Position numbers and translations under genes: made by a program | Source of the DNA: a virus | Lineage: Duplodnaviria > Caudoviricetes | Strand: one strand, 5' to 3' | DNA: 28,181 nt | Virus record (IMG/VR): IMGVR_UViG_3300044580_000520 | Span: 1 to 28,181 of that record | In this document: positions 1 to 24,351 of the stretch, piece after piece | How the letters are laid out: each line of letters starts with the position of its first letter | Position numbering within the stretch: the first letter of the stretch is position 1 | Notes under the pieces: generated by a model | Database searches by the model: none | What the model was told of the DNA's origin: nothing | Seen by the model: the letters and a program-made list of their open reading frames with translations, nothing else

Positions 1-1443
1 TCACCGCTTAATATTACCCCAAAATAGATACACTTTCGTTTGTAATAATATCGCAAGAATATTAATTAATTTAGCAATCTTAGTGCTATCTGCTCCTTTA
101 ATGTATGTTATATAATCCGACGTTTTACCATAAGGGTCATGCCGGTTACTGGCAACTTCTCTTTTGAAGCGCGGATGTTTGCTTGCCGCGAAGGCGGTTT
201 TAAGCTGGGTAATTTGTTCTTCGTTTAAGCTCTCAAGCGCAGATAGTACATACCGTTGGCTTCCGATTAACTGTAAATTGAGACCTAGTGATAGAACTGC
301 CTGCGTTTGCCGCCGGAGTTCTTGTTTGGTTTGTTGTTCTGCGATCTTTTTCATGCCTGCTTTTTCTGCAAAGGGTGAGTATTTCGCCATGACTGCCACC
401 ATTTCCACGTATGGTGTGCCAGCTTGGGGTAAGGTATCATGAATTATTTTTTCGCCTAGGCCTATGGTGCGGTATTTTGGGTGAATTACTATGCGATTGA
501 TTATGCTTAGTTGCTCGTTGAGTTGCTGCATAGTCATTCTGGTTAAAACCTGGCGTCTTCCAAAGCAAGCGGGGGGTGGGTAACTGTAGACTATGACGCC
601 ACAAAGCTCGTCACCACGGACCATGCGGAAGATTTTGCGGGCGGGGGCTATATTGTGCCCTCGGTAGTGGAAGGGCGTGAGTTTTTGCCAGTCAGCTCTT
701 GTACCTTCTTCGATTTTCATCTCTTTGGTTAAGCTGCATTCAGTGGCTGGAATGTTTGGGTAGTATTTGATTTGGATTTCTTCGCCAAACCGCTTACGTA
801 TTAGTACGCTGGGTTTTAGATCCTCGACTAGGTCGTTATGAGTTGTAGCTACTATGACTGCTTTACACTGTTGGCGAGCGAGTTTTTGGAGGTTGTAGGC
901 GATGATTTTTGCTGTGTCTCGGTCTAGGCAGGCGGCGAATTCATCCATTAGCCACCATTGTTTGCCTGATTCGATGAGTTTGGCGATTCTGTAGCGGTAT
1001 TTTTGGCCATCGCTGAGTTGACTGTAGGTGCGTAGAAACAGAAAGGCATCGTTTAAGCCGACTTTACTTAGCAGATCTAAGCCTTGCTCGACGGTGGCGC
1101 CTACGGTTTCGATTAGCGGTTTGTCAGGGTCTACTTGGACTTCTAGGAGGTCAATTGCTTCTTCTCCAAGGTCAGCACGGATCGCCCGGAGCAAAACGCT
1201 CTTGCCGCTCCCGCTATCACCTGTTATATAGACGATGTCTTGGGGGCCTATCTTTAGTTCTGCATCCAGAACTTTGAATCGCTGGGTTTCATCGATTCCC
1301 AAACCGAAGGCTTCAGCTACAACCAAGCTCCGAGGTGTTGGCTTAGTGTGTGTTTCATAGCTAATATTGAAGGTGAATTTGCCTTCCTCTTGGTTGTATA
1401 CTCGTCGGAATTGCCTTATGCGGAGGTCTCTTTGTCGTCTCAT
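1..1443 (-). CDS. ABC-type ATPase fused to a GNAT acetyltransferase (COG2401-like; Mom-like GNAT)
   Basis: Walker A GDSGSGKS, signature LSDGQKYR, Walker B LMDEF, H-loop TTHND. C-terminal FHYRGH...LCGVIVY...RIVIHPKYRTIGLG acetyl-CoA-binding motif. No TM partner gene nearby. Confidence 0.85.
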   Translation of the reverse strand: MRRQRDLRIRQFRRVYNQEEGKFTFNISYETHTKPTPRSLVVAEAFGLGIDETQRFKVLDAELKIGPQDIVYITGDSGSGKSVLLRAIRADLGEEAIDLLEVQVDPDKPLIETVGATVEQGLDLLSKVGLNDAFLFLRTYSQLSDGQKYRYRIAKLIESGKQWWLMDEFAACLDRDTAKIIAYNLQKLARQQCKAVIVATTHNDLVEDLKPSVLIRKRFGEEIQIKYYPNIPATECSLTKEMKIEEGTRADWQKLTPFHYRGHNIAPARKIFRMVRGDELCGVIVYSYPPPACFGRRQVLTRMTMQQLNEQLSIINRIVIHPKYRTIGLGEKIIHDTLPQAGTPYVEMVAVMAKYSPFAEKAGMKKIAEQQTKQELRRQTQAVLSLGLNLQLIGSQRYVLSALESLNEEQITQLKTAFAASKHPRFKREVASNRHDPYGKTSDYITYIKGADSTKIAKLINILAILLQTKVYLFWGNIKR

Positions 1444-1450
1444 TTTTTGG

Positions 1451-2869
1451 TCACCTTGGAATAACTGTTAAGAATGGTTCTGGTTCCATCTGCACTGTTG
1501 CAAACACGGCTAGTGCGATACTCCAAAACACGTCGTCATGGGTGCCGTTTGGGTGTGAGTAGCCTATGGCGCCGTCTTTGCGAAGGTCATAACGTTCCAC
1601 GTTTAGCTCAGTGCAGAGGTCGCCCCTGTAGGGTCGCTCCCAGTTAAGCAGTGGATAATAGAACTGTTTGTTCATCATGCGCTGTTTTAGCAGGCTTGCC
1701 ATCTCGCTTTTGCGGGGCACGCTAAAGTTGACGCCTTCAGCGTTTTCGATGCCTGCAGTTTGCATGTCGGCTATGATGCTTGGGCCTTCGCGGGTGAAGT
1801 CAACTCGGATTTTTTGGAAGCCGCCCCACCTGTCCTGCAGTGCCTTTAGATAACCGAGAACTTGGGCGTAGAGTGTGGGCTGCTGGAAAATCTTCAGATG
1901 CCGAAGAAACAGTTTATCGTTTAGCCGCTCAACCACCGAGAGCACACAGTAATCACGGGTTTGTGCCAAGTCAAGTCCAGCAAAGAAGTCACCTTCACAG
2001 CTAGCTTCGGGATTGAACTCTTGGAGGTCTTCCCCACAATTCTTAACCGTACCCACGCAAGCAACGATCAAGCTCTGAGCCAGCCAAACATCTTCGTCCT
2101 CTGCCCATTCTGCCTCCATTTCACGACGCCAACGCTGCGGATCATCCCCGAACTGGCGTTTAATCTTCTCAACAATAGTGGGCTTAAGCGGACCATTGGG
2201 TTCAAGGGCATCACTCCAGCGAACATGTGACCGCGCAAAATCGGAATAGTCTTTGTGGTTGCACATCTTCCAAAACAGCGAATCTGTATTCCAAGGCGTT
2301 GACGTCGCGATTAGTTTGCCGTTGGTTGTTCCAAGCGTAAACAGGATAGCGTCATAGAGTTCCTCGTCGTTTGGAACGAAGTTGGCTTCTTCGATCCAGA
2401 TAACTTTGAAGGTTGGGCCTCTGATTGTGTCGGGGTTGTTTGGGAAGGCTTCAATCATGCTGCCGTTTGGCAACGTAATCCTTGTTTTCTGGACGTGCAA
2501 GCCGGGCTGCTGGGGAAGCTTTCGACAAAAACCGCCCATGCGTCGTATGTTGAGTTTGGTTTGGCGCCAGCTTGGACCAACAATCGCTATGTAACTGTCA
2601 GGATGCTCCCAAGCATACTTGAGAAGTAACGCTGAAACCGAAAAGCTCTTGCCTGTCTGGCGTGCCCAACGTACAGCAGTAAACTGGTTCTTCTCAAACA
2701 TCTCCGCAAGTTCCAGTTGGTAACGGTAAGGCGTAAACCCGAAGACTTGTTCAAAGAAACTCTTAACATCGCTCCTTAGGCTTTCGACCTTACGTTCACC
2801 TAGCTCTTCAGCAGCCGCTATATCTGAGCGCAAGCCTGCCCGTTCCTCAAGGAGTCGATCTTTATGCAT
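1451..2869 (-). CDS. terL: Terminase large subunit
   Basis: PYRYQ motif, Walker A ARQTGKS, Walker B IWIEEA, coupling motif TSTPW, RNase H-like GLDLAQTRD and HDDVFWSIALA. Start taken at ATG 2869, which overlaps the end of the upstream gene (track start 2899). Confidence 0.95.
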   Translation of the reverse strand: MHKDRLLEERAGLRSDIAAAEELGERKVESLRSDVKSFFEQVFGFTPYRYQLELAEMFEKNQFTAVRWARQTGKSFSVSALLLKYAWEHPDSYIAIVGPSWRQTKLNIRRMGGFCRKLPQQPGLHVQKTRITLPNGSMIEAFPNNPDTIRGPTFKVIWIEEANFVPNDEELYDAILFTLGTTNGKLIATSTPWNTDSLFWKMCNHKDYSDFARSHVRWSDALEPNGPLKPTIVEKIKRQFGDDPQRWRREMEAEWAEDEDVWLAQSLIVACVGTVKNCGEDLQEFNPEASCEGDFFAGLDLAQTRDYCVLSVVERLNDKLFLRHLKIFQQPTLYAQVLGYLKALQDRWGGFQKIRVDFTREGPSIIADMQTAGIENAEGVNFSVPRKSEMASLLKQRMMNKQFYYPLLNWERPYRGDLCTELNVERYDLRKDGAIGYSHPNGTHDDVFWSIALAVFATVQMEPEPFLTVIPR

Positions 2870-3314
2870 TGCTCTGGGACTTTTTGAGAAGTTCCGCATA
2901 CTTTTTTCTAGCCTCCATTAATTCCTCTTCCATTTCCCGATAATGCACATACTCGGCAAACCGCTCCTGGTACACTTTAACCCCAGCGATTATGCCGCGT
3001 AAACGCAAAACCTCAGCCTTATCCAGCCCCGGCGTCTTTAGCGCTTCCAAGGCGGCTGCAAGAATCTTTAGTGTCTCCTCGATGCTGGGCAAATCTTGGG
3101 GAAGCGTCAGTTCGGTAGAACAACAACAATTGGAATTTTTCGGCTGTTGTTGTTCTTTCAGTAACCCAAACTTTAGCAGCTTTTGGCGAATGGCTTCCTC
3201 AGTGTAGCGCCCGTCAAAGCTAAACACTAAGACTCTAAGGTCAGTTGTCCCCGAAGTGTACCAGTCCCTGAGTTTGTGCTCATCATCCGCAGGCCAAGGT
3301 TTGCCCTTCGTCAT
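2862..3314 (-). CDS. Probable terminase small subunit (N-terminal Myb/HTH-like domain, helical C-terminus)
   Basis: KPWPADDEHKL...TEEAIRQKLLKFGL helix-turn-helix pattern, coiled-coil tail, overlaps the start of terL. Confidence 0.55.
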   Translation of the reverse strand: MTKGKPWPADDEHKLRDWYTSGTTDLRVLVFSFDGRYTEEAIRQKLLKFGLLKEQQQPKNSNCCCSTELTLPQDLPSIEETLKILAAALEALKTPGLDKAEVLRLRGIIAGVKVYQERFAEYVHYREMEEELMEARKKYAELLKKSQSNA

Positions 3315-3553
3315 GTTTTCTGCCCCACAAACAACCCAATGACCGTGCCGCTTAGTCCGGTGATTGAAGCGAAAATCTCAGCGTTCCACGTACCTAAAAT
3401 GGCTAAGTGCGCAAACTCAAGAGCCGACATAAACGCTGTCATGCCAATGGCAAATTTGACGCCCAACACAAGCTTAGCGGGCGGCTCTTCTGCGATGAAG
3501 CGCCCTCTCTCAAAGCGTCTCCTTGTCAATGCACGCTTAATTGGGTCTGCCAT
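3311..3553 (-). CDS. Small two-TM membrane protein, holin-like candidate
   Basis: Basic N-terminus followed by two hydrophobic segments (VKFAIGMTAFMSALEFAHLAIL; IFASITGLSGTVIGLFVG), located after the tail genes. Confidence 0.5.
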   Translation of the reverse strand: MADPIKRALTRRRFERGRFIAEEPPAKLVLGVKFAIGMTAFMSALEFAHLAILGTWNAEIFASITGLSGTVIGLFVGQKT

Positions 3554-3950
3554 CGATACTCAACCTCCTCTGTGCAAGCGCTCTTCGAAAAGTTCTTGAG
3601 CGATTCATGGAACGGTGCCCGCCCATCATAAAACTGTTAACAAGCCTGCTAGCCGACTCGTTTGGAATATGCTCTTTAACTAAGACTGTTACGCCGAGTG
3701 CCCAACCGATCGGAATTGCGGTGTAGTCAAGATCGAAGAGACCATCGGCATAGCGAAAACTGTTCTGCGCAATCACGATATGCTTAATTTTGTCGCCGAT
3801 TAAACCGACAAATATTCCCCAACTTTTAACGGGGACATCGATGGTCATGCCTGAGCCGCTGCTTTTACCGACTGAGGCATCGCACCAGTCAATAGCGATT
3901 AAGTCGCCGGGGTGGATGTTTTCAAAGAGTTTTACGATTTGTTTGCTCAT
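3537..3950 (-). CDS. Viral hypothetical protein (beta-rich, IxWxDA...IP pattern)
   Basis: In operon with overlapping neighbours; GGTGA RBS before ATG 3950. Confidence 0.6.
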   Translation of the reverse strand: MSKQIVKLFENIHPGDLIAIDWCDASVGKSSGSGMTIDVPVKSWGIFVGLIGDKIKHIVIAQNSFRYADGLFDLDYTAIPIGWALGVTVLVKEHIPNESASRLVNSFMMGGHRSMNRSRTFRRALAQRRLSIDGRPN

Positions 3951-3964
3951 TTTAGAGGTCACCG

Positions 3965-5575
3965 TTATCGCCTTGCCTTGTAGTTGTTAAGGGCGTTCGT
4001 TCTGGCTTTCAAGGCATAAATCCAGTCAGCCATCAGCTGCTTCTGATAGCCAAGATTCAAAGTAACATCCAGGGTGTTGTTTTCTGCCAACAAATGATAA
4101 TCCACGCTTTTGACAAGAAAACTCACAGAGGAGATGCTTTCGTTTGGCAGAGTAACCTCAATCATATCGCCGGGCAAAATAGGCGAGGTACCATAATCGA
4201 TTAAGGTGCTTTTTAGGGCCAGCGAGGTTTTGGCCTGTTTCTTGTAGGCTAAAATGGATTTAGCTCTAAGCATGCACTCGTTATCGCTGAAGAGGTCCTC
4301 AACGATGTCCACGTACTGGCGCTCGCCATAACTGGCAATGCTTGCGGCGTCGGTTTGCACATTGCTATACCTTGCACCGGTGAAGTAGAGCTGCCCATGC
4401 CAAACTTGACCACTCACGCCAGGGGTAGCTAGATAAGCCGTGACGGTCACCGTGCGGATATTCACCCAGTCAAAGTCGCTGGGAGCAGCCCAATCCGGTG
4501 CATGATTTACATCAACGTCAAGCTGAAACGTTGACCAATCATTACTTGCAGATACACTGTTGACATTTGAGAGGTTGCGGCCACAAACTCTTGACAAGGA
4601 ATCGTGCAGGATAACCAAGAAGCCATCGGACTTGACAAGATCATCCCGCAGTAGTGCTAGAAACAGTTTGGGGTACATGTTGCCGTTTACGGTTGTGGTG
4701 AAGTAGAAGATGCTAACCGCATTGTAGGCCGTGCCCGTGGTGTTCTTTACGCTTGTGGCAGCAGAACCATACTTTATAGCGGAATCTAGAGAAATAGAGC
4801 CGCCATATCCTGTCCAGTAACCACTCGCAGGAGTAAGACTTTCGACCGTTTCATCAACGTCTACGGGTGTGCTTTTGGTGGCAGCGCCATAAATGGTTAT
4901 TTTGTTTCTAACCGAGAGGATATCCGATTCCGTTTCTGCCTCTTCAATCCGTTCAACTAAGCTGACTGAGCTTGTTTTGGCGCCCCTATGGAAAAATTCA
5001 AAACGGCCATCAGGTGCAACCCTAAAATCATATCCGATAGCGCCCGCTTTGTCGCTGTCCTGAGCGATTTGTTTGAGGATTTCCCAAGCTTGTTTATTCT
5101 CATAGTCCAAGCGGGTGAAAGTGGTGTCGGTGTTTTCAACCAGCTCAACTGCGCTTCTCACATGAGGCAGACCCGAATGATAATCGAGGAGATGCTTGAC
5201 GATGTCTTCGCCTTTCATGAGGGCATAGCCTTCGGTGACGTATTCGCGGAATAACCGCTCGCCCCAGTCACGGCCAGAAACAGTTACATAATGCTCAAAG
5301 GCGTTTGACTGGAACTTCATGTTCTCGTTTCGTGTGGTGATAAGTTGAGGACAATTAGCGCCTCGACCCATCATAATGTAACCGTCTTCGCCAAGCGCTA
5401 TTGGAGAGTTACCGGGGCTGTATTTGCCGTCCCAGTTTTGTAGGCGATAGGCGAAGCTGCTGACTTCCTCGGTTCCGCCTAAGTGCAAGGCGATTTCTTG
5501 AATGTCAGCCTGATTAATCTGACCGCCCGATACACCAGAGTAAAGAGTTACTGAAGTAGGTGCAGGTTCGCTCAA
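3965..5575 (-). CDS. Baseplate hub / tail-tip protein with an inserted beta-sandwich domain
   Basis: Follows the tape measure. Hub-like motifs VSGRDWGERL, AWEILKQIA...YDFRVAPDGRFEF, NKITIYG, DAASIASYGER, ILPGDMIEV. Trp/Gly/Ser/Thr-rich insert at about 4380-4870. Confidence 0.75.
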   Translation of the reverse strand: MSEPAPTSVTLYSGVSGGQINQADIQEIALHLGGTEEVSSFAYRLQNWDGKYSPGNSPIALGEDGYIMMGRGANCPQLITTRNENMKFQSNAFEHYVTVSGRDWGERLFREYVTEGYALMKGEDIVKHLLDYHSGLPHVRSAVELVENTDTTFTRLDYENKQAWEILKQIAQDSDKAGAIGYDFRVAPDGRFEFFHRGAKTSSVSLVERIEEAETESDILSVRNKITIYGAATKSTPVDVDETVESLTPASGYWTGYGGSISLDSAIKYGSAATSVKNTTGTAYNAVSIFYFTTTVNGNMYPKLFLALLRDDLVKSDGFLVILHDSLSRVCGRNLSNVNSVSASNDWSTFQLDVDVNHAPDWAAPSDFDWVNIRTVTVTAYLATPGVSGQVWHGQLYFTGARYSNVQTDAASIASYGERQYVDIVEDLFSDNECMLRAKSILAYKKQAKTSLALKSTLIDYGTSPILPGDMIEVTLPNESISSVSFLVKSVDYHLLAENNTLDVTLNLGYQKQLMADWIYALKARTNALNNYKARR

Positions 5576-6120
5576 GTATCCTCGACTCCTTGACGATAGA
5601 TCGCCATGTCACCTGACCGTACAATCCCTCGTGTGGCGGTAGCGGTTTGGCTGGCTGTGGAGTTGAAGTTCTGCATGCTTGACGTTGCCGTATTCATGCT
5701 GTTGGCAAAGGAGTACATTGCAACTGCAGCAGCCGCAATAACAGCGATACCTACGCCTGTTAAAGCCAAGAAAGTCCCGTAACTGATGTTTAGGGCGTTT
5801 TGTGCAGCTGTGGCAACCCAACAAGCAGCCGAATAGACCTTTTGGGCGATAGCAACACCGGTGCTCGTCGAGAGAAACATGCCCATGGCAGTAACCACCA
5901 TCATGGCAGAGTTGAAGGTGCGCATTTGGGCGTCGTTGAGCAAGCCCATTTGGTTGGCGATGTATCCGATTGCGGTGCCAGCTGCGCCGATCCCAGCCAT
6001 GGCAGTGCCCAAGTTTTTAATTCTAGCCGTCAAAGCCTCTGCATCAGTCTTAATTCTGGAGAATTCCCCGCTTGCCCTGTTAACAGCTCTAATGGTCACA
6101 GCTATTTCTCGAAAACTCAA
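5572..6120 (-). CDS. Very short tape measure protein (~182 aa)
   Basis: N-terminal IAVTIRAVNRAS tape-measure-like motif, Ala-rich helices, AAQNALN and GVGIAVIAAAAVA patterns. GGAGG RBS before TTG 6120, which overlaps the upstream stop (TTGA). Confidence 0.75.
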   Translation of the reverse strand: MSFREIAVTIRAVNRASGEFSRIKTDAEALTARIKNLGTAMAGIGAAGTAIGYIANQMGLLNDAQMRTFNSAMMVVTAMGMFLSTSTGVAIAQKVYSAACWVATAAQNALNISYGTFLALTGVGIAVIAAAAVAMYSFANSMNTATSSMQNFNSTASQTATATRGIVRSGDMAIYRQGVEDT

Positions 6121-6461
6121 AGCTGAGCCTCCGCCTTGGCAGCCCAAATAGCGTCGAGGATAACTTTTTCGAGAGCCGGCAAGTACTGCTCTAACGCAGG
6201 CGACAGGTAAGGCCGAGCCCTCATATTTCGTGTTCCAAACTCAACTGCAGCAGCGTATGTGGCCTCAGCGCCCACTTCAACCACCCAATCCTTAACTTTA
6301 GCAAAAATAGTGCGCTGCAGATAGCCAGTCCGCAATGGCACAAGCTTCTCAGCTTCCGCCTTAACAGCTTCTGCCCACTCGGCTAGAACCCTTCGGACCT
6401 CTTGTTGCATTGCGCTGTCGAATTTTGCCATGGCTGCTTGGAATTCATCTGAGCCTTCCAC
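6117..6461 (-). CDS. HK97 gp10-family neck/tail morphogenesis protein
   Basis: VPLRTGYLQRTI, YAAAVEFGTRNMRARPYLSPA motifs; true start may lie slightly upstream. Confidence 0.85.
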   Translation of the reverse strand: MEGSDEFQAAMAKFDSAMQQEVRRVLAEWAEAVKAEAEKLVPLRTGYLQRTIFAKVKDWVVEVGAEATYAAAVEFGTRNMRARPYLSPALEQYLPALEKVILDAIWAAKAEAQL

Positions 6462-6475
6462 AGTGCATGTAACTT

Positions 6476-6685
6476 CTATTGCTGCCGTTTTCCCGCCTCC
6501 CTCTCCGCTTTCCGTTTTTCTTCTTCAGCGATTTCATCCATTACGTTCAAGATGTGGCAGAACTCCTGCACTGTTCGGGCTGGCTGCTTTGCAAGCTCGA
6601 CTGGTGTCCATCCGAAGGTTTGACATAGCCTAAACTCGACAAGAGCACTGTGCGGCTTTCCTCGTCTAACTGCTCTAGTAAAAAA
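6476..6685 (-). CDS. -1 frameshift extension of the tail chaperone (gpT-like; full product ~178 aa)
   Basis: The -1 frame after TTTTTTA (6685-6679) reads FTRAVRRGKPHSALVEFRLCQTFGWTPVELAKQPARTVQEFCHILNVMDEIAEEEKRKAEREAGKRQQ* to TAG 6478-6476. Not in the ORF track. Confidence 0.75.
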   Translation of the reverse strand, partial: FFTRAVRRGKPHSALVEFRLCQTFGWTPVELAKQPARTVQEFCHILNVMDEIAEEEKRKAEREAGKRQQ

Positions 6686-7011
6686 CGCAAATCCTCCCGA
6701 GACATGCCGTTAAGCGTGTTGACTACCTTCGAGAAAAGCTCCCCAAGCTCAATCGGAATACCTACATCTTCGCCCAACAGCTTCTCAATCGTTATTGGGT
6801 GGGTTTGGGGTTGGCCATGCATGCTTGCCATGATGGTTTCAGCTTGGATGGCTATGAAGTCGCTACTCTCAACGTCACCGGACAGCTTGTTGTATTTGGT
6901 GTGCTTTTGGATGATGCGGTTACGTTTAGCCCATGTTATCTCGGCAAAGGTGTAGGTGCCTCTGTATTCTTCGCCGAATCTGCCATCAATCTCTAACTTT
7001 TCCGTTTTCAA
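6547..7011 (-). CDS. Tail assembly chaperone (gpG-like)
   Basis: Directly downstream of the tail tube gene; GAGGAG RBS before TTG; contains an in-frame slippery heptamer T TTT TTA. Confidence 0.75.
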   Translation of the reverse strand: MKTEKLEIDGRFGEEYRGTYTFAEITWAKRNRIIQKHTKYNKLSGDVESSDFIAIQAETIMASMHGQPQTHPITIEKLLGEDVGIPIELGELFSKVVNTLNGMSREDLRFLLEQLDEESRTVLLSSLGYVKPSDGHQSSLQSSQPEQCRSSATS

Positions 7012-7028
7012 CTTTATCTCCTCGGTAA

Positions 7029-7892
7029 CTATGAAATGCTAAGCGGTCCTCTAGCCGTGAAAGGTACCTTTGCATAGATCAGGTCTTCAGATTTGCCGCT
7101 CAGTGAAAAGTCAGCCCATTTTGTGTGCTCTACGCTGACTTTGTTGACCTCGCCCAACCCGAATTCAAGGTTCGACTGCTCTACGTCCGCTAAAACGTCA
7201 TCAGGTTCTTGCCTACTTTCAAACTCAAAGTTCAACTCACCCGTCAGCAGTCGTTTACCCCAAGTGAGATACTTAGCCAAGTGCCCGTTAACCGACCTTA
7301 TGACAGGGACAGGCTTGCAGCTGTTGTCTATCTGCAGCTTCCAAGAAGTAACCCGCTCGTTCATCACACCGCCGATTTTAACATAACTCTCGCTGCCTGA
7401 TACGGCGCCAGAATAGTCGGTGTAAGTAGCATCCGCAATCTTGGCTGTGCCCACTTCGATGTCTTGGGCTGGAAACTCAGCTTCACATTCCAGAATGCCG
7501 TCTATGTCGCATGTTAGGGTGGCTTTGTCAAATCTTGCGCCCTTGTAGAGCAGGCTTATGATGTCTGTGGCAGAAGCGAATTGTTCCTTGTAGTAGAGCA
7601 CTTGCAGGGAGAGGCTGGTGTTTAGTTCTTGCTTGACGTATTGCAGCAAGTTTATGGGAGCGTCCGACGGAATGGGATACTTGACTTTTAGAACAGGCTG
7701 TCTGAGTCCGCGTTTAAGAGCGACAACATCAATCGATCCTGTGCCTACTACCCTAATGTTGTTTGGGTTTATCTCCGGATCTATGTTGCTGCAGGAGTGC
7801 CCAAGCATGGCCGGGTTAGCAGGGACTACGCCGAAGGTACCTTCGGTAGCATAATAGAACTTTTCTTGGTCGCTATGATAGGTGTCCACCAT
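7029..7892 (-). CDS. Major tail tube protein
   Basis: YATEGTFGVVP N-terminal motif, VTSWKLQIDN and LTGELNFEF beta strands. GGGTGA RBS before ATG 7892. No sheath gene, so the tail is non-contractile. Confidence 0.8.
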   Translation of the reverse strand: MVDTYHSDQEKFYYATEGTFGVVPANPAMLGHSCSNIDPEINPNNIRVVGTGSIDVVALKRGLRQPVLKVKYPIPSDAPINLLQYVKQELNTSLSLQVLYYKEQFASATDIISLLYKGARFDKATLTCDIDGILECEAEFPAQDIEVGTAKIADATYTDYSGAVSGSESYVKIGGVMNERVTSWKLQIDNSCKPVPVIRSVNGHLAKYLTWGKRLLTGELNFEFESRQEPDDVLADVEQSNLEFGLGEVNKVSVEHTKWADFSLSGKSEDLIYAKVPFTARGPLSIS

Positions 7893-7907
7893 ATTTTTCA
7901 CCCGTGA

Positions 7908-8924
7908 CTATGAAATGGCCACTGACTCGAAGAGCCAAGCCATGATGACAATTTCTTCTTTGTATAGGAACGGCTTGACGTCAACTACATCGACGTCTCG
8001 GTAACTGTGCACATCGCAGAACGTTATGCCACGTACGTCAACGGTCGCTTGAACAAAATCACAGTACAAAACGGCAGGAGTTACTCCATCTGAGGGGTTG
8101 GTTGTCCGTGCCATTAGGTATAGGTAGCCTTCCTCGTTGACATAGTTCGTGAGGTTAGACGTTAAAGTGACATTCAGGGTCTCGTCTGTTCCCAAAACGC
8201 CGGTTTGTGGATTGCTCCAAGCGGCTGCTGCATTATCCCATATTTTTAGGGTAACACCGTTTCCCTGTGGAACAAGCCCAAAACCCTCAAAAGCCAAAAT
8301 TACACGCTTTAAACACTGCTTTCTCGGTTCATTTCGGCTCTCACCAGCTTTGGAGCCGATTTTGAAGCGGAAAAGCATGAAAGCACGCTCATTTGGAGTG
8401 GTTGTGCTAATAGAGTGCCTGTTATCGTCGCTTGCCCAAAGCTTAGGATACTCCGTATTATCCAGCTCACTCCAAAGAGTACTTGAGGGTTCAGGCTCCA
8501 CCTCAGCGGTTGTATCGTACGCTTTATGGGTTGTAGAACTATCATATAGAGGATAATAACAGAAGATTGTTCTATTTGGTAGGTTGCGGTTCTCGGGAAT
8601 AATCAAGAGCAACTGCTCAAGAACCTTATCACGAATGACTCTGCCGACATCTGCACCTGCAGATGGCTTGTCAACGGTTACTACAGTTGCTCGGAGGGAG
8701 TAGATGCGCCTTCTCAGTTTGCCGTCTAAAGTATGCTTTTGCTGTTGGCAAGGCTCAGAAGTCTTTGAGACGGTTATTTGGGCGTCGTAATCTTTGAGCA
8801 ATTCCCGGTCATAATTCGCCTGAGAGCATAAGACACGGGCTAAGCCGCCATCGTCTTTTACGACTCTTATACGGGACTCGATTAGGCGCAGAACTGTTAT
8901 TACCGGGTTTTCTACTTCACTCAA
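7908..8924 (-). CDS. Probable tail terminator/completion protein with a large inserted beta domain
   Basis: Position just before the tail tube gene; AAGGAGG RBS before TTG 8924 (TTGA overlap). Terminator-like N and C parts flank an insert at about 8040-8580. Confidence 0.55.
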   Translation of the reverse strand: MSEVENPVITVLRLIESRIRVVKDDGGLARVLCSQANYDRELLKDYDAQITVSKTSEPCQQQKHTLDGKLRRRIYSLRATVVTVDKPSAGADVGRVIRDKVLEQLLLIIPENRNLPNRTIFCYYPLYDSSTTHKAYDTTAEVEPEPSSTLWSELDNTEYPKLWASDDNRHSISTTTPNERAFMLFRFKIGSKAGESRNEPRKQCLKRVILAFEGFGLVPQGNGVTLKIWDNAAAAWSNPQTGVLGTDETLNVTLTSNLTNYVNEEGYLYLMARTTNPSDGVTPAVLYCDFVQATVDVRGITFCDVHSYRDVDVVDVKPFLYKEEIVIMAWLFESVAIS

Positions 8925-10312
8925 CTTGCAATTAGCCTCCTTGCGATGCTTTTGAAGTAAAACCGCTGATTCGCAAACGTAAAGGACATTACTGTCTGGA
9001 CTTCGTAGTCTTCGCCTTGACACCTAATCTTGTCATGAACCCTAACTGGAAGAAACGTGTAGACCGTCAAGTAATCGTTAAGGTAATAGCCTGCTTCTAG
9101 CATCACTTGCTCGGCTTTAAGCGAAGAAACAACTGCCAGCAAATCCAAAGGTTCACCATAAGCCACAGTTACGGCGGCTTCTCGAACAGGATAAAGCGTC
9201 ACCGTTACGCCCTTGCTCTTCAGAATCTTGGTGAATTGTGTTACTGGCTCCTCGTAATGTAGAAAAAGCTCGGCTAGCCAGCAAACGGTGACTAATGCCT
9301 GCTTGTTTTCTACATAGCTGTAGTCTGTATGTTTAGCGCCCCAATACATGAATTCGGCAGCATGCTTGCCGATGACTTCTACGCTGAGTCTTAGGCTTGG
9401 CTTGTCATGGTTTTGACGTATTTTCCAAATGATCCCGCTTGTAACGGCGTCGTAGTAGTCGCATGCGCTGAATCGGCTAACTACATCTATGTAGCCTGCC
9501 CAGCAGACCGCAGGATCATAGGCTGGATACTTTGCGCTAGCCCTGATATTGTTTAGTTTGTTGTAGACTTTCTGGCAGCTTGCACTCCAGCCCTCGACCG
9601 CATACATTCCTAACAGCGCGTAGGCGAATGGGTCATCGTAAACCTCATTCTCAGTTAAGCCCACTCGGTGCCATTTGCCGTCTGCAGGGTCAAAGTCTAA
9701 CCAAAGATTCTCAAAACCATACCGGAGAAAGCCTATTGCTTTGCTCATAATACCCTGGTACACTGAAGCGTTTGGGACATCGTGTTTCTCGGCTAGCATC
9801 ATTAAGCCAATCAGCCCATAGAGGCACTCAATATCCAGTTGCAAAAGCCACGCATCGCCAATCGTAACCGCTCTTGCGAAACCGCCGTAGGCCTGCTGGT
9901 CCTGCATAGTTTTGAGAAAAGTTCCGCCAGCTAACTTAGCAGCATCCAAATATCGAGAATCATTGATGAGGTCGTAGACTCTTAACAGGGAAGGTATGAC
10001 CCTGCAGGCGTCTACACTGTAATAGTAAGTGCTATTCTCTGCGCTTTTGAAACCGCCATAAGCCTTACGTGTTGGGTCAAGACATTGCTGGGTTAGAACC
10101 CAATCGGCTAAACTTGCGATTTTGATATAGATGGCTGCGCTTCTGTCCGCAAATTGCGGGGAAGAGTAGGCTTCACATAGGAAGTCGATGGCAAAGCTAG
10201 CTGCTAAAACACCTTTTCCAAAAGCGGGGTCTGGTGTGCTGGGTGGAATAACGTAGACATAAGGGGCGTAGTCCATGATGAATTGGTAGTAGGCTTCGGG
10301 AACGGTTCCCAT
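8921..10312 (-). CDS. Alpha/alpha-toroid (glycosidase/terpene-cyclase-like) domain fused to a C-terminal head-closure (stopper)-like domain
   Basis: Repeats LADWVLTQQ..YGGF and FLKTMQDQQAYGGF, plus YLDAAKLAG. The last ~105 aa (GVTVTLY...HDKIRCQGEDYEVQTV...FKSIARR) resemble SPP1 gp16-type stoppers, and the gene sits in the stopper slot. Confidence 0.6.
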   Translation of the reverse strand: MGTVPEAYYQFIMDYAPYVYVIPPSTPDPAFGKGVLAASFAIDFLCEAYSSPQFADRSAAIYIKIASLADWVLTQQCLDPTRKAYGGFKSAENSTYYYSVDACRVIPSLLRVYDLINDSRYLDAAKLAGGTFLKTMQDQQAYGGFARAVTIGDAWLLQLDIECLYGLIGLMMLAEKHDVPNASVYQGIMSKAIGFLRYGFENLWLDFDPADGKWHRVGLTENEVYDDPFAYALLGMYAVEGWSASCQKVYNKLNNIRASAKYPAYDPAVCWAGYIDVVSRFSACDYYDAVTSGIIWKIRQNHDKPSLRLSVEVIGKHAAEFMYWGAKHTDYSYVENKQALVTVCWLAELFLHYEEPVTQFTKILKSKGVTVTLYPVREAAVTVAYGEPLDLLAVVSSLKAEQVMLEAGYYLNDYLTVYTFLPVRVHDKIRCQGEDYEVQTVMSFTFANQRFYFKSIARRLIAS

Positions 10313-10313
10313 G

Positions 10314-10664
10314 CTAAGCGTTCCCCACATAAGGTGTTTTTAGATTGGCTAGAAGCCGCTCAAACTCTACTTGCAGCACGGCTAAGCTGGGCAATGAAGA
10401 GTTGGAACTGCTCAAGTCGCCAACTGTGAAGTTTAAGCCGATTGCTGAGCCGCCAGTCAAATAGCAGACCGCGTAAATAGCTGCTAGGAGTGTGATGGCT
10501 TCTTTTTGAGCGTCAGTGCAGTTTTGGTAGTCGATATCAGCGGAGAGTTCAAGCTCTAAAGTGACCTCTGCACGCTTAATCATCTTCAGAACTTTAGCAT
10601 CAGAAATATCCGAATCCTTAACATTCAGAACATCTCTTACGTCTTCCGCTGATACGCTACCCAT
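10314..10664 (-). CDS. Head-tail adaptor (HK97 gp6 / SPP1 gp15-like)
   Basis: VSAEDVRDVL...ISDAKVLKMIKRAE helical pattern, FTVGDLS motif, directly after the portal gene. Confidence 0.75.
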   Translation of the reverse strand: MGSVSAEDVRDVLNVKDSDISDAKVLKMIKRAEVTLELELSADIDYQNCTDAQKEAITLLAAIYAVCYLTGGSAIGLNFTVGDLSSSNSSLPSLAVLQVEFERLLANLKTPYVGNA

Positions 10665-10667
10665 CGC

Positions 10668-11936
10668 CTATGCAGCTCCTGCGCTTTCTTTCGGTTTACT
10701 TGGTGCGTTTCCAGGTTGGGCGTCCCAGAGTTCCCAGCCAAACTTAACTGCATTCTTGCGGAACTCCTCACTTCGGATAAGCCCAAGTTCAGCGGCCTTG
10801 ATGAGGTCAGCTGGATTCAGTTCCGGTGTTTCGAGGCTGCCAAAATTCAACCTCACCTTAGCCTTCACAGCATCAAAACCTGATTGAGCAACCACTACAG
10901 CGAAGATTTCACGTTCCACCTGTCGCTTGACGTAGCGCTGAATTGGTTTGACAAGCATATCTTGCAAATCCAAAGCTGCATTCGCTGAGGCTTCGGTGAA
11001 GCCTGGTGTGCTAAACAGGCGTGGAAGGGGTGTTTCGCAGCCCAGATAGAACTGGTTTACCATGTGGTCAATGTAGTACTCAAAGCGTGCCCGAGGGTCG
11101 ATAGTAACAGGATCTAGCCGGGCGGGTGTTTTTCCGCTGTAGAAAAGCCACGTGCCCTCTTCACTGCGATTCTTTATCGCACTCTCAAATTGTTTGATGG
11201 TTGCATCTTTGGCATCAGGAACAGAAGCTAAGACGTCTGGGCCAGCGTATTTCTCGAATATTTTAGGCATTAGCTTCTCGATTTTAGCCTTCATCCATGC
11301 ATACGCTGGGCGTTTATCGTTCTCAATCGTGAGCGTGTGCAAAAGCACCTGTAATAAGCCTGTGCCGAAGCCTGACTGGATGTCGCCGCCTAGGCGCCAA
11401 TGGATAACTGCTTCGGGATTTAACTCGCCGCCTTTATTGTCACGGCTGAGTTCGCGATAACTGCTTTTTAGCTCGTAACCCGTGACTTTGTAGGGCAGCT
11501 TTAGGTTAGAGACACTGCTTAAGCCAATGCGTTGGACCCCGTCGATTGGGATGCGTATAGTATCATTCAATTTCTGGGGTGTCAGTCTTAGCCAAAAGTC
11601 GTTCCCACAACCGATCAGAGGCTTAGCCATTTCATTTAGCAAGCCATCGAGATTGACATCCTCGCAAAACTTATCGACGGCAGCTTTAGCTTCCGAGGCT
11701 TTCTCGTACTTTCCGTCGACTGTAGTATAGAAACCCATACCAACTGTTGAAGCAGATAGAAGATCAATGCTGCTTTTGCAGGTCGGATCTCGATCGTAGA
11801 GCTTCATAACGTCTGCAAGCGGAATGCAGGTTGTATCGAAGAATACTCGTCCTTTCGGTGAAGCGACGCCAGAAGCAGGTGCATACGTTAGGACTTCACG
11901 AATCTTGTTAATTACCTTACTCAGAACCGATTTCAC
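10668..11936 (-). CDS. Portal protein
   Basis: LYDRDPTCKSSIDLLS, LIGCGNDF, EAVIHWRL...GFGTGLL, LVKPIQRYVKRQVE and LIRSEEFRK portal motifs. Exact start uncertain. Confidence 0.88.
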   Translation of the reverse strand: MKSVLSKVINKIREVLTYAPASGVASPKGRVFFDTTCIPLADVMKLYDRDPTCKSSIDLLSASTVGMGFYTTVDGKYEKASEAKAAVDKFCEDVNLDGLLNEMAKPLIGCGNDFWLRLTPQKLNDTIRIPIDGVQRIGLSSVSNLKLPYKVTGYELKSSYRELSRDNKGGELNPEAVIHWRLGGDIQSGFGTGLLQVLLHTLTIENDKRPAYAWMKAKIEKLMPKIFEKYAGPDVLASVPDAKDATIKQFESAIKNRSEEGTWLFYSGKTPARLDPVTIDPRARFEYYIDHMVNQFYLGCETPLPRLFSTPGFTEASANAALDLQDMLVKPIQRYVKRQVEREIFAVVVAQSGFDAVKAKVRLNFGSLETPELNPADLIKAAELGLIRSEEFRKNAVKFGWELWDAQPGNAPSKPKESAGAA

Positions 11937-11956
11937 CTCAGTTTCTTCGTTTTAAC

Positions 11957-11963
11957 AAAAAAA
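11957..11963 (-). terminator. Oligo-T (T7) archaeal-type terminator/attenuator after the major capsid gene
   Basis: CATCCCCCTTTTTTTG on the - strand about 30 nt after the capsid stop. Confidence 0.45.
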
Positions 11964-11992
11964 GGGGGATGAGTTGCATGCTTAGCCAACGC

Positions 11993-12955
11993 TCAAGTTA
12001 GGGTAGTCTTTATGCTGGTCATTTTGGCAACAGCAGTGGAACGTAGGATGCCAGCACCGAATCTTGTGGTTGCACGAACGCCATACTTCCCGGTTTTTGT
12101 GTCTTCCCAATCTTCTACTGTAATGTCTCGGCGTAGAAGCATGGCAGAGGCGACTCTAGTGTCGATTGCGTAAGCCGTACCGTTTGGCACTAAAGTGCTC
12201 GCTTGTACCCTCATGCCAAGGATGCTTCCGACGCTTCCCTGTTCAATATCGGTTTCAGCACTTGGCAGATATTGTGCATGAACAAATTTGTCATCGTTGA
12301 GTAGTTGGTGTAGTTGGGTCTCGCTGATCGCTAATACCGTCGGGCGCCAATTTTCGCTTCTTACGGCATCATGTAGTTTAAGCAATCCAGTCCAGCTAAG
12401 AACAGCGTTGCCGCCATCAATTGGCGAGCCGCCTGCTAAGTCAGCATTCTCCACAGCACTATATAGAGAAATTATGTCTGTAGTCTCTTGCATACCTAAA
12501 GCTCTGCCAACTTTTTCCACCATGTTATCCATGACATTCCACGTCGCGTCTTCAAGGAACTCCCGTGTCCATTCTTCCGAGGACTCAGAAAGCACGTTAG
12601 TATAGATGTCAATGAAGGAATTCTTTTTTCCACTAAGTCTTGTTAGTGATCCTTCAGAATAGCGGTAAGCGACTGCGTCGGTATCAAGTGGGAAACGTTC
12701 TGTTGTTTCTGTGGTTGGCATAACGTTGATGATGTTTCTGCCGATTAGCTCTGGGTATGCTGCCTGTACTAGGGTGTCATGCATTCTGCCAAGGGCGCCT
12801 GTCATGTCGCTGAATAGGCCTTCTTTTATGCCCATAGCAACATAGCGTTTGAGGAATGGGTGGTCGGTTTTCTGCTTTAGTTTCTCGTAGACTTCCCGTT
12901 GGTCATTAGGTTTAGCCATCAAAGTTTCAAACAATCGCGGTTTCAATGCATTCAC
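11993..12955 (-). CDS. HK97-fold major capsid protein
   Basis: EWTREFLEDATWNVMDNMVEKVGRALG spine helix, GSILGMRVQASTLVP, RATTRFGAGILRSTAV. Start may be TTG 12946. Confidence 0.9.
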   Translation of the reverse strand: MNALKPRLFETLMAKPNDQREVYEKLKQKTDHPFLKRYVAMGIKEGLFSDMTGALGRMHDTLVQAAYPELIGRNIINVMPTTETTERFPLDTDAVAYRYSEGSLTRLSGKKNSFIDIYTNVLSESSEEWTREFLEDATWNVMDNMVEKVGRALGMQETTDIISLYSAVENADLAGGSPIDGGNAVLSWTGLLKLHDAVRSENWRPTVLAISETQLHQLLNDDKFVHAQYLPSAETDIEQGSVGSILGMRVQASTLVPNGTAYAIDTRVASAMLLRRDITVEDWEDTKTGKYGVRATTRFGAGILRSTAVAKMTSIKTTLT

Positions 12956-13380
12956 TTCTCCACGTCAATGAAAATTAAGTCGCCATCTGCTGCGGCTGAT
13001 TCTAATGCGGTTCCGAGTTTGCGATTATAGAATACGGTGTAGGTTGCTGCGCCGCCTTCGTTAACCGGTTGGTCTACGTACTGCGTTACTTTGTTGCTGC
13101 CTGCGCTGCATACGCCGTATCCTCTTGCAATGGCGCCGTTGGCTACAACTTTGACTCTGCCTTTCTTGAGCACCGGACACATAGCGCCGGCAGCAACGGA
13201 TTTGACGGCTACGCCTATGGCCATATCTCCGCCGGGGCTTGGTGATACCTTGTCATCTGAGCTTAGGTGGACTGGTGAGCCTTTGGTCACTGCTGATTCA
13301 GCCTCAAAAGATTCTATCTGGGCGTTGGGGTCGTCGGTTTCTCCTGCAGCCATCCAGGGTTTGCCTGTTTTATCAGTCAT
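12952..13380 (-). CDS. Capsid cement/decoration protein (DUF2190-like)
   Basis: FEAESAVTKGSPV, AIGVAVKSVAAG, GAIARG, LGTALESAAADGDLI; directly upstream of the major capsid gene. Confidence 0.8.
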   Translation of the reverse strand: MTDKTGKPWMAAGETDDPNAQIESFEAESAVTKGSPVHLSSDDKVSPSPGGDMAIGVAVKSVAAGAMCPVLKKGRVKVVANGAIARGYGVCSAGSNKVTQYVDQPVNEGGAATYTVFYNRKLGTALESAAADGDLIFIDVEK

Positions 13381-13464
13381 CTAATTTCAAATCAATTCGT
13401 TTTCTTGAATTTCCCAAAGTTCGTCCTTTGGTACTCTTCCTCATAGAAATGAGCAAAAGCACAG

Positions 13465-14184
13465 CTAGCCGCCTCCCTCTAGCTGTTTGACTACTCTTCG
13501 GAGTTCTTGGCACATGCGCTGAGGTCCCAAACCCCAGCTGCGCTGAATCATCGGCGAAGGCAGAACTGCCTCAACCATACCTGCAGCCTCCGAAACCGCT
13601 ATCATCTTAGGCGGATTCTTTAGCAACCCACCATCTGGGACCTGTTTGCGTAAGTCTTCAATTGTTCTTTGAGCCTCAGTCAGTTTGCCTTCAGTTTGAT
13701 TGAGCCTTTCCAAAACCTGAACATTACTTTCAGGAATACCAGGAACCGCGACTAGGCTTAACTCGGCATTATGCATGCCATGGGGAACTTTGCCATCCAC
13801 CAAATCGACCGCTTCATAGTCTGCTCCGACGCTTACGTGCTGAACGAGGCCTTTGCGGATTTTCTCGCCTGTATCCCCATCATAAATCTCTGCTTCATAC
13901 CAGAGATTGTGTCCATCCCAGTCAGTTTTAGTTACCTTGCCGACAGCGTTAGGTACGGCGACATGCTCGATGTAGACGGGTGCATTGGTCAGCTTACTTG
14001 CAAAGTTCTGCAGCTCCTCAGAGGTGTAGATGTTGAGGTTTCGACTCATGCCTGTACACATGGCCACGCCTCGAATACGCAAGGGCTTATCGGATAAAGC
14101 CTCAAGAACCTTAAAGGGTAAAATTGATGCTACATGCTCCCGAAAACGCTTACAATCCTTACAGCCAACACTACCCTGAGACAT
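13465..14184 (-). CDS. Prohead maturation protease with short C-terminal coiled-coil (scaffold-like) region
   Basis: IRGVA...SRN..IY, APVYIEH (catalytic His), HVSVG (catalytic Ser), ELSLVAVPG. Confidence 0.85.
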   Translation of the reverse strand: MSQGSVGCKDCKRFREHVASILPFKVLEALSDKPLRIRGVAMCTGMSRNLNIYTSEELQNFASKLTNAPVYIEHVAVPNAVGKVTKTDWDGHNLWYEAEIYDGDTGEKIRKGLVQHVSVGADYEAVDLVDGKVPHGMHNAELSLVAVPGIPESNVQVLERLNQTEGKLTEAQRTIEDLRKQVPDGGLLKNPPKMIAVSEAAGMVEAVLPSPMIQRSWGLGPQRMCQELRRVVKQLEGGG

Positions 14185-14216
14185 CGCTAAATCGCCACCA
14201 AACTATTCGGAGGCTA

Positions 14217-14265
14217 TGCATAAATTACTTGAGAGCCTAAACACGATCTATATCGCAAACACGAT
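14217..14265 (-). promoter_or_regulatory. Putative late (virion operon) promoter: TATA-like box with upstream repeated motif
   Basis: TTTATGCA (14224-14217) about 35 nt before ATG 14184; AAACACGAT direct repeats at 14239-14247 and 14257-14265. Confidence 0.5.
14229..14247 (+). repeat. 19-bp direct repeat, copy 1 (TTGAGAGCCTAAACACGAT)
   Basis: Identical to 18904-18922. Confidence 0.9.
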
Positions 14266-14453
14266 TGCAATAGGGCAAAATTGAAAAAGCCACATTCAGG
14301 GGTGTTTGAAGAAAATGTCAATCGACCGCATATCCCTCTTAGCATACAGACGTTTTTTAATCTAATAGGTAGGTTGTCCTTAGCGTCAAAGCCAGTTTCA
14401 AGCAAATTTATATTATGAGTTCTGTATATTTGCACAAAGAGGGCAAAGTAATC

Positions 14454-16801: not shown

Positions 16802-16955
16802 AGCACGAATGGTAAGCAACTCTACAGGTAACAAAACATTATCTCCACTATAGAAAAGCTGATGTATGATATAACAACCAGAGGATGAATTGACGGCAAA
16901 TCTTTATTTAACAAAAGTCAGACAAAACTAAGATATCCATAAGAGAAAACGTCTG

Positions 16956-18650: not shown

Positions 18651-18785
18651 AGGCGACAATATTAAACGTACGAGCGCTAATAGGAAACAAGAAAATTTTT
18701 GATGTTTTGGCTTCCTATCAATATCAAGATTTAAGTTTTTGAATCGCCTTTTATTTAATTTCATTAACTTCAGCGCGCGCTTAAC

Positions 18786-18887
18786 GAACTCAAAATCTGC
18801 TTTTGCACGCTCTGTTTTCATTAAAGCATTCCTCCTAGAGCGGGTTACATTGGGCGTTTTCATCTTTAACTTACGAGCAATCCCATA
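18786..18887 (-). pseudogene. 5'-truncated copy of the HTH gene at 22147-22353
   Basis: YGIARKLKMKTPNVTRSRRNALMKTERAKADFEF vs YRIARKLKMEIPNVTRSRKNALRKLEGAKADLEF, 26/34 identical by hand; the N-terminal ~18-20 codons are missing. Confidence 0.85.
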
Positions 18888-18903
18888 GCTTAGCGTTAAT
18901 GGT

Positions 18904-18922
18904 TTGAGAGCCTAAACACGAT
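18904..18922 (+). repeat. 19-bp direct repeat, copy 2
   Basis: Identical to 14229-14247. Confidence 0.9.
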
Positions 18923-18955
18923 AATGAATTAAAGACTGGGTTACATTTCCAAAAA

Positions 18956-18986
18956 TTTATATCTTATTTATATCTTATAAGATATA
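18956..18986 (+). promoter_or_regulatory. Operator/promoter: tandem TTTATATCTTA x2 overlapping the perfect 18-bp palindrome TATATCTTATAAGATATA
   Basis: Repeats at 18956-18966 and 18967-18977; palindrome at 18969-18986, 14 nt before the RHH gene. Confidence 0.7.
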
Positions 18987-19000
18987 TTGAGTGTGGATCA

Positions 19001-19180: not shown

Positions 19181-19211
19181 AATTCGGAACCAAACCACTA
19201 AACACTATCAA

Positions 19212-22062: not shown

Positions 22063-22146
22063 ACAGGTTATCCCTATCTTTAAGGTTAGTAAGACACTTT
22101 TAAAATTTGCCGAAAAAACGCTTGCTCATAAGCCAAGTTTATTTGT

Positions 22147-22353: not shown

Positions 22354-22356
22354 AGG

Positions 22357-24020: not shown

Positions 24021-24021
24021 C

Positions 24022-24315: not shown

Positions 24316-24351
24316 CTTTTTAAAAAGTATAAATTAAAGGCTAGAAGGAAG

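Follow-up and report, generated by a model that had tools for sequence, protein, structure and literature searches.

A stretch of 28,181 nucleotides of Caudoviricetes DNA, comprising the whole of IMG/VR virus record IMGVR_UViG_3300044580_000520 (here called the window), can with high confidence be regarded as a trimmed-out part of a Bathyarchaeia head-tail virus, temperate and integrating, that is inserted at a tRNA-Gln gene and belongs to the lineage of the published provirus BATPV1 (JAAKEZ010000002:240214-273571; Xu et al., PMC11705971; publications are cited here for the parts of them that were covered). An earlier note, made from the letters alone, had described a minimal archaeal head-tail operon with a tape measure protein (TMP) of about 182 codons and had left two readings side by side, a small-genome virus lineage and a domesticated gene transfer agent (GTA). 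The first agrees with our results, since 33 to 48 kb lie between the attachment site (att) duplications of relatives; the second does not, since integrase, att duplication, and patchy distribution, which the note itself had named as signs against a GTA, are all present in close relatives. As an entity, the window appears ordinary: it adds one more copy to a Bathyarchaeia provirus lineage already in print and is no archaeal GTA.

Relationship to BATPV1

The published table of BATPV1, whose coordinates enclose one of our loci (L073), has the genes of the window in unchanged order; there, gene 20 (193 aa) is annotated as the TMP, and a tyrosine recombinase is gene 40 (PMC11705971). Like the window, BATPV1 runs from early winged helix-turn-helix (wHTH) genes to a gene for an ABC-type ATPase fused to an acetyltransferase-like domain (ABC-acetyltransferase); it is tRNA bounded, with the recombinase at the far end. 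Twenty genes match at 40 to 87% (major capsid protein, 84%; large terminase [TerL], 78%; tube, 86%; TMP, 70%). With 20 of the 28 element open reading frames (ORFs) queried matching BATPV1 (40 genes), the shared fraction is 71% or 50%, which falls within one family under the thresholds quoted by Xu et al. (20 to 50% shared proteins for a family, at least 60% for a genus). The two differ in the tRNA gene (tRNA-Pro versus tRNA-Gln in the window), in their cargo, in the hub (47% identical), and in TMP length (193 versus 182 aa). In all likelihood the window adds a member to a Bathyarchaeia provirus lineage already known; the small-genome lineage envisaged in the earlier note is not a new one, as BATPV1 shares its gene order and includes a TMP annotated at 193 aa. 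The table entry two places before BATPV1 has the same layout and is, by table order only, probably BATPV2. The parts of that paper covered contain no remark on tail length or design.

Integration and distribution of the lineage

We mapped 13 regions around relatives in Bathyarchaeia genomes, selected for long contigs. An integrase homolog lies beyond the ABC-acetyltransferase gene and a cargo block in 12 of them, and 8 are bracketed by tRNA-end duplications of 14 to 22 bp placed 32.8 to 48.0 kb apart (tRNA-Pro and tRNA-Ala, one each; tRNA-Arg, tRNA-Lys, and tRNA-Asn, two each). For BATPV1, this mapping gives the published left boundary (240214). Two integrases are above the Pfam cutoff (E values of 4e-20 and 7e-23), and a second integrase type is subthreshold. 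Short integrase-like matches also occur at the opposite, early att end (G003:C37 and G002:C1, both intA; G005:C4, intB), which suggests that the att site splits the integrase gene upon integration. Integrases of the fusellovirus type are encoded by genes that integration splits.

The distribution is patchy. A capsid match (E ≤ 1e-40) was found in 53 of the 401 genomes of the class, with one to five matches each, and incomplete genomes may conceal more. In a quick tree based on TerL only (57 rows: the window and 56 of the 80 genome loci), more than one origin was needed in 14 of the 15 multicopy genomes listed. The window TerL is 99% identical to copies on four contigs from another genome, which points to recent spread, and cargo varies among loci. 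Four loci (L007, L071, L078, and L083) carry the head and terminase genes of the family with an unrelated conventional tail module between the portal gene and a 141-aa gene; this alternative tail has a 131-aa tube protein and a 357- or 530-aa tape measure, followed in L007 and L071 by a 124-aa gene at the distal-tail position and a 608-aa protein. Gene order in these loci indicates whole-tail swaps within the family.

These findings bear on the GTA reading, under which the operon would be a fixed host locus packing random chromosome fragments, as RcGTA does. The compact operon of about 14 kb would suit such an agent, as would a tape measure shorter than the approximately 216 residues of RcGTA, strong purifying selection, the lack of an integrase or replication gene in the record, and the lack of circular forms among 50 relatives. 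A single, fixed, vertically inherited locus is nevertheless not what was found (53 of 401 genomes, up to five matches, five tRNA sites, scattered TerL), and neither is a locus free of integrase and att, as judged from the relatives, the far end of the window's element lying beyond the record. Copies of TerL within one genome are unrelated, and the record stops with the end of a gene, just where relatives continue with cargo and integrase. Because integrase and att occur at five tRNAs, the capsid gene is patchy and multicopy, TerL is scattered, tails are swapped, and cargo is variable, the gene patterns indicate an element that behaves as a temperate virus and not as a fixed GTA locus; we regard the GTA reading as hardly credible. 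A short tape measure together with an integrase missing from a trimmed record does not amount to evidence for a GTA. Among literature on Bathyarchaeota and gene transfer agents, no title on this subject was found.

The edges of the record bear on how its missing genes should be read. It opens with the stop codon of the last gene (bases 1 to 3) and closes on the initial base of an ATG (base 28181), and contigs of 1.4, 1.6, and 0.65 Mb carry proteins that match the window capsid protein and TMP at 100% identity. For these reasons the record appears to have been cut from a chromosome, with one cut falling on the side that holds the integrase in relatives. The element is not finished at 14184: cargo and early genes run on to a tRNA-Gln(CTG) gene at 24351 to 24424 (minus strand; ARAGORN), the probable integration site at the early-gene end of the provirus. 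A tRNA gene precedes the early genes in the same way in G001 (tRNA-Lys), G325 (tRNA-Arg), and L001 (tRNA-Arg), and a second copy of the tRNA 3' end lies next to an integrase homolog at a distance of 48.0 kb in G001 and 33.9 kb in G325. The second att copy of the window's element would accordingly be expected outside the window; within the window, no long terminal or att-like repeat was found, nor any integrase fragment with four integrase queries (best E value, 0.4). Contigs of three sequencing runs compared with positions 8182 to 28181 contained no att junction; cover by one run (X1) was flat over the element, with none past about 24.3 kb, a hole that is no evidence, as X1 may be the source itself (0.99 of the words of 18182 to 28181) and its contigs were filtered.

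Several observations weigh against the temperate-virus reading. Neither an integrase nor a second att was seen for the window's own element, whose far end is beyond the record, and an exact 33-base scan of metagenome contigs gave no extension at the left end. Five of the 13 mapped regions lack an att duplication (two have no tRNA, one reaches a contig end, one has no integrase in range, and one has only 12-bp chance matches). The 50 IMG/VR relatives comprise 20 proviruses and 30 linear records, none with terminal repeats, so that circular excised forms, which the earlier note had also listed among the signs against a GTA, did not appear; PF00589 is found in only 4 of them, most of these records being fragments. 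Purifying selection (dN/dS of 0.04 to 0.13 over nine virion genes compared with the window, several with few unsaturated pairs) is equally compatible with a GTA, and some domestication within the family is possible, since the element is common and multicopy and stand-alone terminase pairs exist in hosts. Finally, the tape measure's own profile matches are weak (E values of 0.0015 to 0.07; PHROG TMP, 0.0086), and its assignment relies on its position, on the chaperone frameshift upstream, and on the published HHpred label.

Some of the same facts allow that the lineage is a real provirus lineage of which the window is a stranded copy, with its virion genes intact, its integrase or att lost, and excision impossible; G002_b and G002_d may be such copies. 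The far end is out of view, regions without detectable att exist, and broken copies occur (L066, L078, and L079). All 17 ORFs of the virion operon and the early genes are intact, though, and the near identity of TerL to the four contigs argues in the same direction, so that we consider a stranded copy unlikely, if by no means negligible, next to a complete temperate virus.

The short tape measure as a family norm

The TMP measures 182 aa (5572 to 6120, minus strand), as the earlier note had it; it begins with a TTG that overlaps the stop of the preceding gp10-like gene and ends on the hub start. It is 70% identical to BATPV1 gene 20, annotated as TMP at an HHpred probability of 95.9% (PMC11705971). 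ORFs at this position span 170 to 334 aa (31 ORFs called in 39 loci). In a protein database at 90% clustering, 1,041 homologs have 100 to 319 aa and 17 have 320 to 529 aa, with none longer, a search that is weak evidence for the absence of long forms; about 180 to 195 aa predominates among the best 120 matches. In the five long homologs displayed, both conserved ends are retained and the difference lies in inserts of Pro-rich repeats; dN/dS is 0.071 (10 pairs compared with the window). Because lengths are short throughout, the long forms displayed bear inserts, and selection is purifying, the alignments indicate that the short form is the norm of the family and not a deletion.

The note had held that much longer homologs would mark this copy as a deletion derivative; a related possibility is that the 182-aa protein is no length ruler, being instead, for example, a podovirus-like ejection or needle protein. 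The 17 longer homologs and the weak profile matches are in keeping with these proposals, as is the resemblance of the RcGTA tape measure to the P22 tail needle (PMC7296036). The nature of the long forms, the prevalence of the short length, and the low dN/dS speak against them, as does the conservation of the tube protein and of the G/GT frameshift, both parts of ruler-tail machinery, and we rate them as very unlikely. The distance between the two conserved motifs of the TMP takes the values 73 (5 rows), 97 (143), 129 (12), 146 (2), and 248 to 251 (4); motifs were matched in 166 of 188 rows, which include duplicates and are biased to close matches. The values 73, 97, and 129 are suggestive of stepwise core lengths about one ring apart.

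Predicted design and size of the tail

The tube protein model (pLDDT of 86) consists of two tandem tube domains. Over its full length it resembles the tubes of SH-Ab15497, P74-26, and T5 (Z scores of 23.6, 22.7, and 18.7), whereas single-domain tubes align to residues 1 to 153 or 162 to 290 only. P74-26 has trimeric, pseudohexameric rings with a rise of 40.25 Å; trimeric rings are shown for that phage and stated for T5 (PMC10034513). From this likeness in fold, the rings of the window's tube would also be trimeric. A slippery site (T TTT TTA/G) with an open -1 frame of 62 to 71 codons occurs in the chaperone gene of all 40 homologous loci examined, at identities down to 28%, and predicts a frameshift.

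The G/GT chaperone arrangement is a hallmark of ruler-built tails. The tube fold, the lack of a sheath match among the 32 window ORFs, and a tail block in which every large ORF has an assignment predict a tail of the siphovirus type. The tape measure overlaps the hub start, and no room is left for an intervening gene in 30 of the 33 loci holding both; the three others are L055, with an N-terminal extension of the hub, L062, with an insert, and L040. No separate distal-tail (Dit) gene thus stands between tape measure and hub, though a Dit-like domain may be concealed in another protein. A trimeric tube could join a trimeric hub with no adapter from sixfold to threefold symmetry between them, which would explain the missing gene.

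In HFTV1, TMP residues 2 to 316 (315 helical residues) span 11 rings, 25 residues lie in the baseplate, and the tail measures 56 nm (PMC12494034). Scaled accordingly, the window TMP would span (182 - 25)/28.6 = 5.5 rings, giving a tube of 20 to 24 nm and about 30 to 35 nm overall with neck and hub. Scaling by RcGTA, in which approximately 216 residues go with five tube rings plus a single distal one (PMC7296036), likewise gives about five rings. The tail would thus be GTA-sized, with about five rings and some 30 to 35 nm in length; the 25 to 30 nm given in the earlier note was of the right order for a very short, noncontractile tail.

In the life cycle that we propose, a tyrosine integrase, lying beyond the record at the other end of the element, would excise a circle of about 33 to 48 kb, and the early wHTH genes together with host enzymes would drive expression and replication, no viral replication enzyme having been recognized among the 32 window ORFs. 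The small and large terminases (TerS and TerL) would fill an HK97 head; the G/GT chaperones would coat the 182-aa tape measure, the usual siphovirus route, and about five trimeric rings of the two-domain tube protein would stack on it. The last ring would dock straight on the trimeric hub, making a hexameric distal-tail adapter unnecessary, and the particle produced would bear a rigid, noncontractile tail with a 20- to 24-nm tube. Because no fibre gene was recognized, we propose that adsorption proceeds via domains grafted on core parts; receptor binding is likely to reside in the neck barrel, the AF_1625_C-like insert of the terminator, and the variable middle of the hub.

Taken as a whole, the picture of a mobile archaeal virus family with a near-minimal ruler-built tail (a tape measure of about 156 to 195 aa, about five trimeric rings directly on a trimeric hub, no distal ring or fibres, receptor binding on neck, terminator, and hub inserts) that is exploited by head-only and terminase-only satellites seems to us evenly poised between right and wrong. 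Genes and single-chain models together suggest that a tiny, Dit-less tail with a trimeric tube is genuinely shared by the family. If so, the family would mark how short a tape-measure-built tail can be in a real virus, and it would stand between podovirus stubs, the RcGTA tail, and HFTV1; the two-domain tube would remove the need for a distal-tail adapter, and a tail of GTA size would serve an infectious virus. Short tails of similar size are already known from RcGTA and, at twice the length, from HFTV1. The family is abundant (909 capsid and 1,041 tape measure homologs at 90% clustering) and carries defense cargo between hosts in a highly abundant archaeal class. Among the papers listed on short tape measures, short tails, and archaeal proviruses, we found no description of a Dit-less short tail with a two-domain tube; the passages covered of one paper (PMC13573593) mention neither tape measures nor GTAs.

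Comparison with other head-tail systems

HFTV1 resembles the family in being a small archaeal siphovirus with a short, rigid tail, with no distal-tail hexamer among the parts listed and a trimeric connector on a trimeric hub (PMC12494034); its 284-aa chain 9fkb_BA shares the two-domain tube fold (Z score, 11.2). It differs in its 341-aa TMP, 11 hexameric rings, 56-nm tail, and separate tail fibres (PMC12494034), whereas in the window a single two-domain protein apparently forms the whole tube, the TMP has about half the length, and no fibre gene was recognized. RcGTA is like the family in its very short tape measure, its five tube rings, and a similar expected tail size, but it has a single-domain hexameric tube, a distal-tail hexamer, a hub and megatron, and a head holding less than 4.5 kb (PMC7296036); integrases, att sites, and genomes of 33 to 48 kb are found on the side of the family. 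T5 (pb6), P74-26, and SH-Ab15497 share the two-tandem-domain tube (Z scores of 16 to 24), whereas their tails are long (nearly 1 micrometer in P74-26) and T5 has a distal-tail protein, pb9.

Among head-tail viruses of Bathyarchaeia, "Fuxiviridae" and "Kunpengviridae" resemble the window (Fuxivirus has 32 kb; Kunpengvirus has an integrase), but Fuxivirus encodes type IV-B CRISPR-Cas and Cas4, and Kunpengvirus encodes PolB, MCM, and Cas4 (PMC10848311/PMC10541130). These markers were not recognized in the window or in the covered annotation of BATPV1. Duan et al. left one large Bathyarchaeia virus cluster unnamed (PMC10848311/PMC10541130), and a term search of the covered journal supplements gave no match to JAAKEZ, A05DMB, or "provirus."

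Head-only relatives and stand-alone terminases

Two kinds of relatives may be more surprising than the short tail itself. In head-only loci (L026:3298-7173, L028:3648-12217, L029, L039, L037, and L042), the portal gene is followed, after 0.3 to 1.0 kb, by the 141-aa gene, a membrane gene, and the terminase; neck and tail genes are missing from the interval. An integrase (E value, 1e-37) stands at the end of L028, and L026, L028, L029, and L039 form one group at 81 to 95% DNA identity. We regard these loci, known from incomplete records, as candidates for capsid-forming satellites that borrow tails.

Stand-alone TerS-TerL pairs lie amid host genes, at about 9500 to 11450 in each locus (L056, L068, L072, L082, L092, L098, L121, L127 to L130, and others). 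Among 55 genome loci that extend 10 kb upstream of TerL, 26 that include both flanks carry no family head or tail gene, and 18 of these 26 have no other family gene at all; in 16 of the 18, the matched TerL stretch is free of stops. The pairs were found by a TerL search, and the counts are biased towards them for that reason. In L068, L072, and L082, the pair stands before a shared set of host genes; its synonymous divergence is similar to or lower than that of the flanks, and dN/dS is 0.05 to 0.11. The pairs of L109 and L110 are far closer than most of their flanks (pS of 0.13 versus about 0.7), and those of L127 and L128 are more distant than their flanks, with a stop in one. The pairs may represent a packaging cassette, either mobile or domesticated, through which host DNA could be loaded into the heads of a helper. 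A search of the literature on orphan terminases found nothing.

Gene content of the morphogenesis operon

The operon was described in the earlier note as complete and without pseudogenes, and we find 17 intact head-to-tail ORFs on the minus strand, from 14184 to 1, with no internal stop. "Tightly packed" describes it more exactly than the "tightly overlapping" of that note: it is compact, but genes overlap at only 6 of 16 junctions, with gaps of 1 to 115 bp at the others, counts that depend on the start codons chosen. The absence of a sheath, tail fibre, integrase, polymerase, primase, or helicase that the note had reported was borne out by Pfam and PHROG scans of the 32 window ORFs. An HK97-fold capsid, a large terminase, and a portal (the last through the BATPV1 annotation) place the element in Caudoviricetes, and named relatives of window proteins are Bathyarchaeia in nearly all cases.

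All genes of the operon are on the minus strand, beginning with the prohead protease/scaffold (13465 to 14184; weak PHROG protease matches, E values of 0.016 to 0.025; 79% to BATPV1 gene 8, annotated as head maturation protease), the capsid cement/decoration protein (12952 to 13380; PF09956, 7e-8), and the HK97-type major capsid protein (11993 to 12955; PHROG 267, 1e-14; PF05065/PF25209), whose named homologs are mostly Bathyarchaeia. The portal (10668 to 11936) has no direct Pfam or PHROG match and is 79% identical to BATPV1 gene 11, annotated as portal at an HHpred probability of 100%; the head-tail adaptor (10314 to 10664) is 87% identical to BATPV1 gene 13, annotated as head-tail adaptor (PMC11705971). 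The 463-aa neck protein that follows (8921 to 10312) combines an (alpha/alpha)-barrel domain resembling sugar enzymes with a C-terminal head-closure-like domain (pLDDT of 82 overall and 31 to 58 in the C-terminal domain). Foldseek matches the barrel to GH8, GH76, and epimerase barrels at low identity; the C-terminal part matches PHROG 939 (3e-4), and this weak match, with the position, makes the protein a putative stopper. The 338-aa protein at the terminator position (7908 to 8924), by that position the probable tail terminator, has a large extra AF_1625_C-like domain (ESM Atlas, 0.98 to virus clusters with PF27237).

The tail genes proper comprise the 290-aa tube protein (7029 to 7901; PF18906), the G/GT-type tail assembly chaperone pair (6547 to 7011; -1 slippery site T TTT TTA at 6685), the HK97 gp10-like tail completion protein (6117 to 6461; PF04883; PHROG 5, 4e-20), the tape measure, and, directly after it, the 536-aa baseplate hub with its variable central insert (3965 to 5575; PF24032, PHROG 400). 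Weak profile matches link this hub with a protein of the VgrG type and with another baseplate hub of 954 aa (9h4p); the central region of the window hub is poorly conserved. Sequence searches of hub, terminator, and neck protein against the PDB gave only weak or chance matches; look-alikes of the hub carry carbohydrate-binding labels in 18 to 40% of single clusters, which serve as leads only. Next come the 141-aa protein and an 80-aa hydrophobic protein (together 3311 to 3962; present in 58 and 51 loci, respectively, with no family matches), of which the latter, by size and hydrophobic stretches, may be holin-like. The small terminase (150 aa, assigned by position) and the large terminase (together 1451 to 3314; PF03237; PHROG 2, 7e-38) precede the ABC-acetyltransferase (1 to 1443; PHROG 293, 886, and 11841), whose stop codon forms the record edge.

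Early genes, cargo, and the region beyond the tRNA

The first gene of the element encodes a 59-aa Cys-rich protein (24022 to 24201, minus strand), homologs of which lie directly inside att in several relatives. It is followed by a 321-aa protein (23055 to 24020, minus strand) with a MarR-type wHTH and a conserved C-terminal domain (307 representatives at E ≤ 0.001), a candidate regulator or, judging from its position, replication initiator; its matches are to wHTH families only, with no replication family among them. A 185-aa protein and a 68-aa LuxR/GerE-type HTH protein (together 22147 to 22914, minus strand) are further early regulators.

The variable cargo (14415 to 22062, genes on both strands) is low in GC (34 to 45%, versus about 48 to 50% in the virion operon). 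It comprises three plus-strand ORFs (426, 369, and 564 aa) that have no family matches and are absent from 170 relative loci, a PD-(D/E)XK-like ORF, and an IetS-like subtilase (E value, 6e-34) that matches 1 of the 170 loci. The subtilase gene (19810 to 22062) adjoins the PD-(D/E)XK-like ORF and has no recognizable IetA ATPase gene next to it. The HTH region is duplicated, with a copy at 18787 to 18887 (76% identity over 101 bp; original within 22193 to 22293), and an 18-bp stretch at 14230 is repeated at 18905, so that two cargo blocks are flanked by regulator or promoter repeats (14213 to 14247, 18787 to 18922, and 22193 to 22293). Such repeats are a possible route for cargo exchange.

Past the tRNA, positions 24455 to 28181 hold low-GC (about 38%) minus-strand ORFs of 356, 69, 162, 195, 98, and 97 aa, possibly a second mobile element that uses the same tRNA. 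None of these ORFs is matched in the 170 loci and almost none has a family match; the 356-aa ORF has a Walker-A-like motif.

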